Source: an archaeon (GTDB lineage: Archaea; Micrarchaeota; Micrarchaeia; Norongarragalinales; UBA97). Taken from it: a stretch of 28,199 nt of DNA. Location: the NCBI GenBank assembly GCA_020057405.1, contig JAGVFW010000015.1, positions 1-28,199 of the forward strand, written 5' to 3'. The first letter of the stretch is position 1. Every line of letters begins with the position of its first letter. Positions 4,217-5,077 of this stretch are shown one piece after another. The notes beneath the pieces are model-generated. The model searched no databases and was not told the origin of the DNA. It saw nothing but the letters and a program-made list of their open reading frames with translations. The position numbers and the translations under genes are program-made.

Positions 4217-4368
4217 TTAAAGTTCGCCAGTTCTTCGCTTCATCTTGCGCTTCAAGCGCTTGCGTCGCTTCTTAATCCATTTCCAGCGCATGTGGCCTGA
4301 AAAGACAGCTTTCCATCAAACGATGAAAACGCGGTTTTCTTTTTCCACTTGCGCGGACGAGCACCCAT
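4217..4368 (-). CDS. rpl41e: Ribosomal protein eL41 (eS32), predicted join(4368..4337, 4298..4217), 37 aa
   Basis: GGAGG SD, then ATG at 4368 encoding [11 protein letters not shown]. After a 38-nt insert and in another frame comes [26 protein letters not shown]. The joined sequence fits the long archaeal eL41 pattern [19 protein letters not shown] (recalled from Thermococcales). Confidence 0.9.
4299..4336 (-). other. Putative 38-nt bulge-helix-bulge/BHL-type intron in the eL41 mRNA
   Basis: Insert AACCGCGTTTTCATCGTTTGATGGAAAGCTGTCTTTTC. Central helix AAAG/CUUU with 3-nt bulges AA^A and UC^A. Inner stem AC/GU, GC/GC, UUUUCAUC/GAUGGAAA. Outer exon stem GUGG/CCAC and GCGCA/UGCGC after two A-G mismatches. 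Canonical cuts restore the frame. Confidence 0.8.
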
Positions 4369-5077
4369 TTGCTTTCCTCCGCTTAGTAAGTTCAATAACT
4401 ATCTTATCAACAACTTTTGTAGGGCTTTCCTTTATATCCTTCTCGCTAAAGCGCAGAACTAGCCAGCCATTCTCAGTTAAAACCCGGTTCACACGCACGT
4501 CTTTAACTATTGCCTTTGGAATTGAATGCCAATAATCGCCGTCACAAAACACGGCGATTTTCTCATCCGGAAACGCCTTGTCCGACTGGCAAACGCCAAG
4601 AATGGGCAAATGCTTGTAGTGCCCTATCTCTCGCCTTGAAAGTTCCCCTTCGACAAGCCGCTCAATGCTCGTGTCTTTAGTGGGTCGGGGTACGGCAAGT
4701 ATCTTGAGCCTATGCTCTTCGGATTTCTTCTTTCCGCGCATGGCTTCGGACTTGCTCATTGTCCTTATTCCAAACTCCCTGAAAAGACGGCGCAAAGTTT
4801 GGTGGTGAATGGAGAGTTTAATTGCGAGATTCTTTATCGAAATTCTCTTTTCCAAGTATTCTTCTCGCAGATAATCAGCCGTAATGTGTCCAAGCTTATG
4901 CTTTCGCCGTACTCGCCAAGATTCAAACAAATCACGAGGCCGAATGTCATAGCGCTTCAGAATCTTTGCGATGGTCTTGTAAGAGCAACCAAAATGCTTG
5001 CAAAGCTCGCGAGTGGAGAGTTCGTTCTGAACATACAATTCCTCGAGCTCTTCTCTAGGAATTACAACGTTCTTCAT
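4316..5077 (-). CDS. HTH-repeat + NUMOD3-like + Vsr/DUF559-type endonuclease; free-standing homing-endonuclease-like protein
   Basis: Two HTH-like modules (ELEELYVQNELSTRELCKHFGCSYKTIAKILKRYDI; YLREEYLEKRISIKNLAIKLSIHHQTLRRLFREFGI), a NUMOD3-like MRGKKKSEEHRLKI, and a Vsr-like core TSIE..SD..IAVFCDGDYWH..KD..L.ENGWLVLRFSE. Visibly more AT-rich than its flanks. ATG 5077 preferred over TTG 5116. Confidence 0.85.
   Translation of the reverse strand: MKNVVIPREELEELYVQNELSTRELCKHFGCSYKTIAKILKRYDIRPRDLFESWRVRRKHKLGHITADYLREEYLEKRISIKNLAIKLSIHHQTLRRLFREFGIRTMSKSEAMRGKKKSEEHRLKILAVPRPTKDTSIERLVEGELSRREIGHYKHLPILGVCQSDKAFPDEKIAVFCDGDYWHSIPKAIVKDVRVNRVLTENGWLVLRFSEKDIKESPTKVVDKIVIELTKRRKANGCSSAQVEKENRVFIV

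Follow-up and report, generated by a model that had tools for sequence, protein, structure and literature searches.

In contig JAGVFW010000015.1 of a Micrarchaeota genome (GenBank assembly GCA_020057405.1), whose 28,199 nucleotides (nt) are called the window here, the unannotated gene for the ribosomal protein eL41/eS32 lies on the minus strand at 4380-4217 and is split inside codon 11 by an insert of 38 nt. This insert is very probably an archaeal bulge-helix-bulge (BHB) intron. The original prediction had proposed such an intron in a hidden eL41 gene, and the proposal is now supported by an intron-less allele, by 20 further inserts in the eL41 genes of related genomes, by selection on exon 1 and by the presence of genes for the splicing endonuclease EndA and for RtcB. 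Another gene, homing-endonuclease-like and overlooked in that prediction, overlaps the intron locus and is probably part of the story.

The source genome, labelled G000 in comparisons, is a metagenome-type assembly of 17 contigs with a completeness of 90.6%, and eL41 is present in it as a single copy. The locus is laid out as follows.

4376..4380, minus strand: Shine-Dalgarno-like (SD-like) GGAGG, 7 nt ahead of the eL41 start codon
4337..4368, minus strand: eL41 exon 1, with 10 codons from the start codon (ATG, 4368-4366) onwards and the first 2 bases of codon 11
4299..4336, minus strand: predicted BHB intron of 38 nt, missing from the same-genus allele L001
4217..4298, minus strand: eL41 exon 2, with the last base of codon 11, 26 codons and a TAA stop

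Read without splicing, the frame from ATG 4368 yields 11 residues ending in a lysine run and then unrelated residues and a stop (open reading frame (ORF) 4252..4395), and a separate, intact ORF of 24 amino acids (4217..4291) lies in a different frame from exon 1. The GGAGG with its 7-nt spacer and ATG, the opening of 11 codons, the break in frame and the second frame all stand where the original prediction had placed them. Excision of 4336-4299 restores the frame, as had also been predicted, and the joined product of 37 amino acids is identical to P0001, the product of the uninterrupted gene of G001, a genome of the same genus.

Identity of the gene as eL41/eS32

Relatives and sequences of solved structures were used for the identification because neither Pfam nor NCBIfam recognises the 24-residue exon 2 product, a short basic peptide. 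Residues 2-35 of P0001 align with the eL41/eS32 chains of the archaeal ribosomes 9fny, 6skf, 6sw9 and 6tmf (E 2.4e-8 to 1.3e-7), and the exon junction falls in the middle of the best-conserved block of this alignment. The exon 2 product also matches exactly one locus per genome in all 41 related genomes (41/41).

The length of eL41 differs between structure entries. In 4v4n_Ah and 5jb3_0 the protein has 22-24 residues and starts at an internal methionine, and in the newer 6skf_Bk and 9fny_A2 it has 36-37 residues; the short annotation in the older entries is the same truncation that the intron causes in the gene calls here. The N-terminal part of eL41 is thus easily missed, as the entries of 22-24 residues illustrate.

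Interrupted and uninterrupted eL41 genes

The order-level survey covered 68 genomes, of which 46 have an uninterrupted eL41 gene, three have no match and one has a poor match only. There are 19 places in which the gene is interrupted or partial; 18 of them were read, and the nineteenth (G053) is cut by a contig end. A phylum-wide sample gave an eL41 match in 382 of 401 genomes, a count that includes the unpublished G241 and G094. Outside the order the five weakest matches were inspected and 237 unlisted matches were not, so the number of interrupted genes there is a minimum; among the five, G143 and G117, both from another family, each have an eL41 insert of 30 nt, G174 and G407 are uninterrupted, and a contig end truncates G279. 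Metagenome contigs scanned for exact words of an exon 2 stretch gave no match.

The verified total is 21 inserts in 20 genomes, with lengths of 30-42 nt. Every phase is represented among these lengths (phase 0 by 8 inserts, phase 1 by 6 and phase 2 by 7), and each of the 8 in-frame inserts contains a stop. The 21 inserts occupy four sites within 8 nt; one of the sites directly follows codon 9, and the other three interrupt codons 9, 10 and 11. One genome of the same family, G002 (locus L003), carries two inserts of 37 and 42 nt in a coding sequence of 111 nt, with a middle exon of 12 nt. The original prediction had pointed to intron-less alleles and to covarying BHB pairs among relatives as the things to look for, and both exist: the former in G001, in the same genus and with the identical product, and the latter across the 21 inserts, as described below.

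Two genomes deserve separate mention. The G002 inserts lie about 125 nt upstream of the exon 2 match and no nuclease gene is found upstream of them; the central helix of the second is perfect and palindromic (CAUG/CAUG), and that of the first has 3 of 4 pairs. The G012 bin contains two eL41 genes that differ by synonymous changes (contig C3 11933-12043 and contig C44 306-404; L047 and L044), one uninterrupted and without a nuclease gene, the other with an intron and an intact nuclease gene. These two forms could be co-existing alleles, strains or a binning mixture.

The bulge-helix-bulge motif

The BHB geometry was taken from PMC4090602, where a helix of 4 bp lies between two bulges of 3 nt; in pre-tRNA the first two anticodon bases lie within the helix (PMC4090602), and the cut was therefore placed after the second base of each bulge. 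Applied to the window, this geometry gives the following elements.

4339..4342, minus strand: central helix H, exon strand AAAG (5' side), pairing with 4301-4304
4301..4304, minus strand: central helix H, intron strand CUUU (3' side), pairing with 4339-4342
4336..4338, minus strand: 5' bulge AAA, predicted cut after the second base (4337/4336)
4298..4300, minus strand: 3' bulge UCA, predicted cut after the second base (4299/4298)
4305..4335, minus strand: inner helix h', 4335-4331 with 4309-4305 and one C.U mismatch, and an 8-bp hairpin, 4329-4310
4282..4357, minus strand: outer helix h between the two exons (whole span), 4357-4345 paired with 4295-4282, two A.G mismatches next to the 3' bulge

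In the inner helix 4 of the first 5 pairs are formed, and in the outer helix the two A.G mismatches are followed by runs of 4 and 5 bp. The fold that the original prediction described, with its outer stem, AAAG/CUUU helix, AAA and UCA bulges and inner hairpin, could thus be reproduced, though it is not the fold of minimum energy. The 99-nt region as a whole folds at -32.8 kcal/mol (z -2.37 against shuffles), and 5 of 200 shuffled sequences fold as well.

The tRNA introns of the same genome served as a control of the geometry. It holds exactly for tRNA-Gly(CCC), Gly(UCC), Trp and Val and with 3 of 4 helix pairs for Cys and Tyr, these clear cases alone being used as Aragorn intron calls are unreliable at non-canonical sites. 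In G000 Aragorn also calls a tRNA-Cys with an 868-nt intron (contig C17 52830-53787), which may hold a gene or be a false call, and several non-canonical introns, for example in a tRNA-Pro (134 nt) and a tRNA-Trp (137 nt).

For the choice of cuts, every pair that restores an open eL41 frame was listed and scored against the geometry, which gave 41-49 frame-restoring cuts at each of the order's 17 single-insert loci and 25 in G143 and G117. In the window, 1 of 48 such cuts has a perfect central helix together with the inner helix and yields the consensus protein. The top-scoring cut combines a perfect helix with a protein of consensus length in 15 of the 17 single-insert loci, as well as in G143 and G117. 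When a good outer helix was demanded as well, a strict scan recovered the true cut in no more than two cases, the window and the second L003 intron, and the outer-helix requirement was dropped for this reason.

At the cuts chosen for the 21 inserts, pairing is seen at 79 of 84 positions in the central helix and at 93 of 105 in the first five inner pairs; sliding the 3' partner by 1-2 nt lowers these values to 38-49 of 84 and 44-53 of 105. Under a strict test, which asked for all four central pairs and for no fewer than 4 among the first five inner ones, 16 of the 21 protein-restoring cuts passed, compared with 160 of 96,936 other cut pairs (0.17%), and none of 1,176 passed when both cuts were slid together by 3-30 nt. 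Allowing for the choice among about 48 cuts per locus, fewer than one pass per ten loci would be expected by chance.

At each of the four insertion sites, the 3' strand of the intron is complementary to the four exon bases that precede the 5' bulge of that particular site. The helix words found at the different sites are GUGG/CCAC, AUGG/CCAU, UGGA/UCCA, GGAA/UUCC, GAAG/CUUU, GAAA/UUUC and AAAG/CUUU, to which CAUG/CAUG is added by the second intron of G002. The covariation of the helix word with the cut site is the strongest point for a BHB motif, and it provides the covarying pairs among relatives that the original prediction had in mind.

Exon 1 and the splicing machinery

The start codon of exon 1 is retained in all 20 interrupted genomes. 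In the same genomes codons 4-7 (R, P, R, K) are represented by 6, 4, 5 and 2 synonymous codons, respectively, with zero amino-acid changes. Of the 19 interrupted loci that were read upstream of exon 1, most have an SD-like GGAGG or GAGGTG there. Judged from these substitution patterns, exon 1 is under purifying selection. The kept start codon, the synonymous-only change and the SD-like motif are difficult to account for if exon 1 and exon 2 are not translated in one frame.

The genome encodes the enzymes that such splicing would need. An ORF of 388 amino acids matches the ARMAN-2 epsilon2 EndA 4fz2 over residues 10-388 (E 1.8e-127), and 9w2k as well, RtcB is encoded in the genome (E 9.6e-174), and 19 of the 47 tRNA calls of the window genome have introns. 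The ARMAN-2 enzyme has already been obtained in purified form, and relaxed motifs are substrates for some of these EndA enzymes (PMC12397907). The cbf5 gene of the same genome is uninterrupted. In the pre-mRNA, the four exon bases 4342-4339 would pair with the four intron bases 4304-4301 and expose the two 3-base bulges, the epsilon2-type EndA would cut each bulge after its second base, and RtcB would join the exons into an mRNA for the full protein of 37 amino acids. That ribosome synthesis might thereby be tied to tRNA-splicing capacity, as the original prediction suggested, is speculation.

A homing-endonuclease-like gene upstream of eL41

Two further genes lie upstream of eL41 on the same strand.

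4316..5116, minus strand: homing-endonuclease-like gene, its product combining two helix-turn-helix regions with a nuclease domain of the Vsr/DUF559/I-Bth0305I-like kind
5132..7228, minus strand: Ski2/Hel308-type helicase-like gene, upstream neighbour of the nuclease gene, a reading of the sequence alone

With its tail the nuclease gene reaches across eL41 exon 1 to a stop within the intron (4318-4316); its start is likely ATG 5077 rather than the listed TTG 5116, because relatives align from residue 12-14. HTH_23 and HTH_28 of Pfam are found above their cut-offs, NUMOD1 only at E 0.067, and DUF559 covers the C-terminal nuclease domain with 25.7 bits against a cut-off of 20.6. A profile of twelve nuclease domains (A1) matches 3r3p_A, entitled 'Mobile intron protein', over the whole domain (E 1e-10), and Vsr (1cw0) at E 3.9e-6. 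The protein 3r3p is the intron-encoded homing endonuclease I-Bth0305I (PMC3239194). The N-terminal part matches PHROG 8446 'HNH endonuclease' (E 1.2e-14) and phage families labelled HNH or homing endonuclease, and a relative at the class level has the same nuclease domain fused to NUMOD3 (E 4.7e-12).

The association of this gene with eL41 is close. All 11 genomes of the order survey with a strong match (E <1e-30), which span five families (f1, f3, f7, f9 and f11), have the nuclease gene directly upstream of eL41, and eL41 is interrupted in 10 of these 11, with introns about 30-40 nt from the end of the nuclease gene. Of 47 nuclease relatives in the GTDB species representatives, the 10 loci with at least 49% identity all belong to Candidatus Micrarchaeota and have eL41 downstream, which is the case for none of the remaining 37; the ten loci probably overlap the order survey and are not extra cases. 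None of the 9 nuclease-domain relatives in viral contigs adjoins eL41, nor do any of the relatives in Fermentimicrarchaeum, Bathyarchaeota, Woesearchaeota and bacteria. In the complete Micrarchaeota-class genome G164, three identical genes for a NUMOD3 plus Vsr-like nuclease stand 25,989 nt apart on contig C1 (352615, 378604 and 404593; L056, L081-L083), with a fourth nuclease copy elsewhere and a serine-rich ORF upstream; the arrangement looks like a large tandem repeat or a repeated mobile region.

By the condition of their nuclease gene, the 20 interrupted genomes divide as follows.

Full or nearly full, no stop: 5 genomes
Full or nearly full, in-frame stop: 4 genomes
Copy cut by a contig end: 1 genome
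Short, weak remnants: 4 genomes
No trace: 6 genomes

This series of intact, decayed and absent copies fits the usual life cycle of homing endonuclease genes. Among the 46 genomes with uninterrupted eL41 a single one, G045 (L046), has the nuclease gene, and its eL41 has an unusual valine where the introns sit in other genomes. G001 has neither nuclease gene nor intron, and about 50 nt separate its helicase gene from the eL41 gene downstream. No helicase match is found upstream of the nuclease gene in family f9, unlike in G000.

A functional link between nuclease and intron is a serious prospect, if not quite an even one. The upstream gene would be a free-standing I-Bth0305I/Vsr-like homing endonuclease that has settled beside eL41, the intron would break up a sequence that the nuclease would otherwise cut, and the two would be maintained together as a unit that perhaps also spreads ('collaborative homing'). 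A more specific form of this idea, tentative and somewhat doubtful, is that the mini-intron and the nuclease constitute one mobile unit colonising the eL41 genes of Micrarchaeota, in which the nuclease would cut uninterrupted eL41 near codons 9-11 and the intron would give immunity. Such an intron would be tolerated because the epsilon2 EndA, with its broad specificity, splices it, and the four neighbouring sites would go back to separate births of introns, or to re-insertion where the nuclease cuts.

The nuclease gene and the intron may also be merely physically linked, an explanation whose probability comes close to one half. An ancestor would have gained both within 1 kb, and the later pattern would result from their joint loss by recombination with an uninterrupted allele, or from decay of the nuclease gene while the intron, which is hard to delete, stayed. 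Several findings speak for such linkage and against a functional connection: the nuclease gene is undetectable in 6 of the 20 interrupted genomes, G143 and G117 included, and reduced to weak remnants in 4; G045 combines a nuclease gene with an uninterrupted eL41; the nuclease has diverged as deeply as host proteins, its identity to G000 being 37-50% and that of the neighbouring helicase 48-72%; and a maximum-likelihood tree of 14 nuclease domains has no well-supported branch. As the tree is unresolved and nuclease identity is not above helicase identity, no horizontal transfer is claimed. On the other hand, linkage alone leaves unaccounted for why this clade stands solely beside eL41, in 11 of 11 genomes from five families and in 10 of 10 GTDB loci at or above 49% identity against 0 of 37 others, why its domain architecture resembles that of homing endonucleases, and why introns occur at four sites within 8 nt near the end of the nuclease gene. 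The functional link is held back because linkage by itself could give the association, the tree is unresolved and there is no sign of recent transfer.

Alternatives to splicing

Some observations weigh against the reading of the insert as a spliced BHB intron. The outer helix of the window is mismatched and, because it opens with two A.G mismatches, the motif at the 3' site is a relaxed one; in most loci the outer helix is poor or mismatched. The BHB conformer, at -30.5 kcal/mol, lies 2.3 above the minimum of -32.8, and the 4-bp helix has a pair probability of about 0.13. Five of the 21 inserts fail the strict test, four through an imperfect central helix (three with 3 of 4 pairs, one with 2 of 4) and one through its inner pairs, and the pairing counts are somewhat inflated, since the cut was picked partly by motif score among the frame-restoring cuts. 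The Pfam family Ribosomal_L41 (PF05162) is not found in the genome with an E limit of 10, nor in the 24-residue exon 2 product; this miss is taken as a weak test because PF05162 is a eukaryotic eL41 model of 25 positions that scores below its cut-off even in control archaea. If translation began at ATG 4291, the product of 24 residues would resemble the short chains that the older entries 4v4n and 5jb3 give for eL41. Cleavage and ligation are inferred, as is the target of the nuclease.

The short product belongs to an explanation in which nothing is spliced: only the C-terminal peptide of 24 residues would be made from ATG 4291, and exon 1 would be a dead remnant. The intact ORF 4217..4291, the chains of 22-24 residues in the older ribosome entries and the 25 positions of the eukaryotic model all agree with it. 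It is nevertheless very unlikely, given that exon 1 keeps its start and its residues in 20 of 20 interrupted genomes with synonymous-only change at codons 4-7, that no SD-like motif precedes ATG 4291 in the window sequence, and that the more recent archaeal ribosome chains of 36-37 residues include those of exon 1; the motif statistics would also be left unexplained.

Ribosomes may instead bypass the insert, or shift frame across it, on an uncut RNA. Gene 60 of phage T4 has a short coding gap that holds a hairpin, and the eL41 inserts are likewise short (30-42 nt) with a hairpin. Bypassing has very little to recommend it beyond this likeness, because in the window the codon before the landing point, UCA, differs from the take-off codon AAA, the inserts occur in all three phases with stops in all 8 in-frame ones, most junctions lie inside codons, and the geometry is the same as in the tRNA introns of this genome. 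A pseudogene or an assembly artefact, which a metagenome-type assembly of 17 contigs might suggest, is scarcely credible when the same kind of insert recurs in 20 separate genome assemblies, when both exons are conserved and when the locus is the sole eL41 copy of a 90.6%-complete genome.

Neighbouring genes on the opposite strand

On the plus strand, window positions 2903-4164 hold a Sua5/YrdC-family gene (Pfam E 2.1e-50) and then a small RIO/Bud32-like kinase gene. The stop of the former overlaps the start of the latter, the pair resembles t6A/KEOPS-type genes, and the kinase gene converges on the 3' end of eL41.

Comparison with known introns and homing systems

The cbf5 pre-mRNA intron of Crenarchaeota was reportedly described by Watanabe in 2002. 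It is likewise a BHB intron within a gene that encodes a protein, and it is removed by the tRNA splicing endonuclease (Yokobori 2009, PMC2738675), which for eL41 we infer. Both introns are found in lineages with a relaxed-motif EndA, and both have been gained and lost among relatives (PMC2738675 for cbf5). They differ in the gene affected, eL41/eS32 rather than a pseudouridine synthase, and in the host, as the Micrarchaeota belong to DPANN and have an epsilon2 EndA and the cbf5 hosts have a heterotetramer. Unlike cbf5, eL41 also has its insertions at four sites within 8 nt, in one genome two introns in the same gene, and a nuclease gene beside it. Archaeal tRNA introns of the hBHBh' and relaxed HBh' types share with those of eL41 the 4-bp helix, the two 3-nt bulges and the use of exon bases as the 5' strand of the helix (PMC4090602). 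Unlike in tRNA introns, the eL41 substrate is an mRNA, and the outer helix is formed by two coding exons and has a mismatched start.

The nuclease and its position can be compared with two phage systems. In cyanophage S-PM2, the free-standing nuclease gene for F-CphI likewise stands beside a conserved gene that bears an intron, the group I intron of psbA, and in the collaborative homing described there the intron blocks self-cleavage and the nuclease mobilises the intron (PMC6083498). Unlike this group I intron, the eL41 intron is a protein-spliced BHB intron of 30-42 nt, with no ribozyme and in an archaeal host; the Micrarchaeota nuclease is Vsr/EDxHD-like and F-CphI is Endo VII-like, and cleavage of the intron-less eL41 allele is a prediction. 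I-Bth0305I (EDxHD, PDB 3r3p) is the best solved-structure match of the nuclease domain and is related to Vsr too; unlike the window nuclease, it is encoded by a group I intron that sits in the recA gene of a phage (PMC3239194). The window nuclease, in contrast, is free-standing and has helix-turn-helix DNA-binding regions, and several conserved residues of the D-G-x-Y-W-H block of its clade differ in the 3r3p chain.

Homing endonucleases and BHB introns are also combined in crenarchaeal rRNA genes, where long BHB introns encode LAGLIDADG homing endonucleases inside them. The eL41 locus likewise has a BHB intron and a homing-endonuclease-like gene, with the differences that the nuclease lies outside a mini-intron, that the interrupted gene encodes a protein and that the nuclease is of another family.

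Significance

Literature searches, which did not extend to supplementary files, where more archaeal mRNA introns could be listed, found no report of an eL41 intron, and the review-level introduction of a 2025 paper on the ARMAN-2 enzyme cites cbf5 alone for protein-coding introns (PMC12397907). Within the literature searched, eL41 would thus be the second archaeal mRNA intron family besides cbf5, in a domain where mRNA splicing is rare. EndA and RtcB would act in mRNA maturation in another phylum, in the reduced genomes of DPANN archaea, and both alleles occur inside one genus. The 21 insert variants offer a natural test bed for the substrate rules of epsilon2 EndA. For annotation, the finding means that gene callers do not see the eL41 protein of 37 amino acids in roughly a quarter of this order's genomes; no match to it was found with Pfam or NCBIfam either.

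If the link with the nuclease is true, the gain of such introns becomes directly testable. Collaborative homing has been described for phage group I introns, and no archaeal case was found in the literature searched; if intron and nuclease do form a mobile unit, they would be the first example of collaborative homing in archaea and would make visible a route by which BHB introns arise in protein genes.

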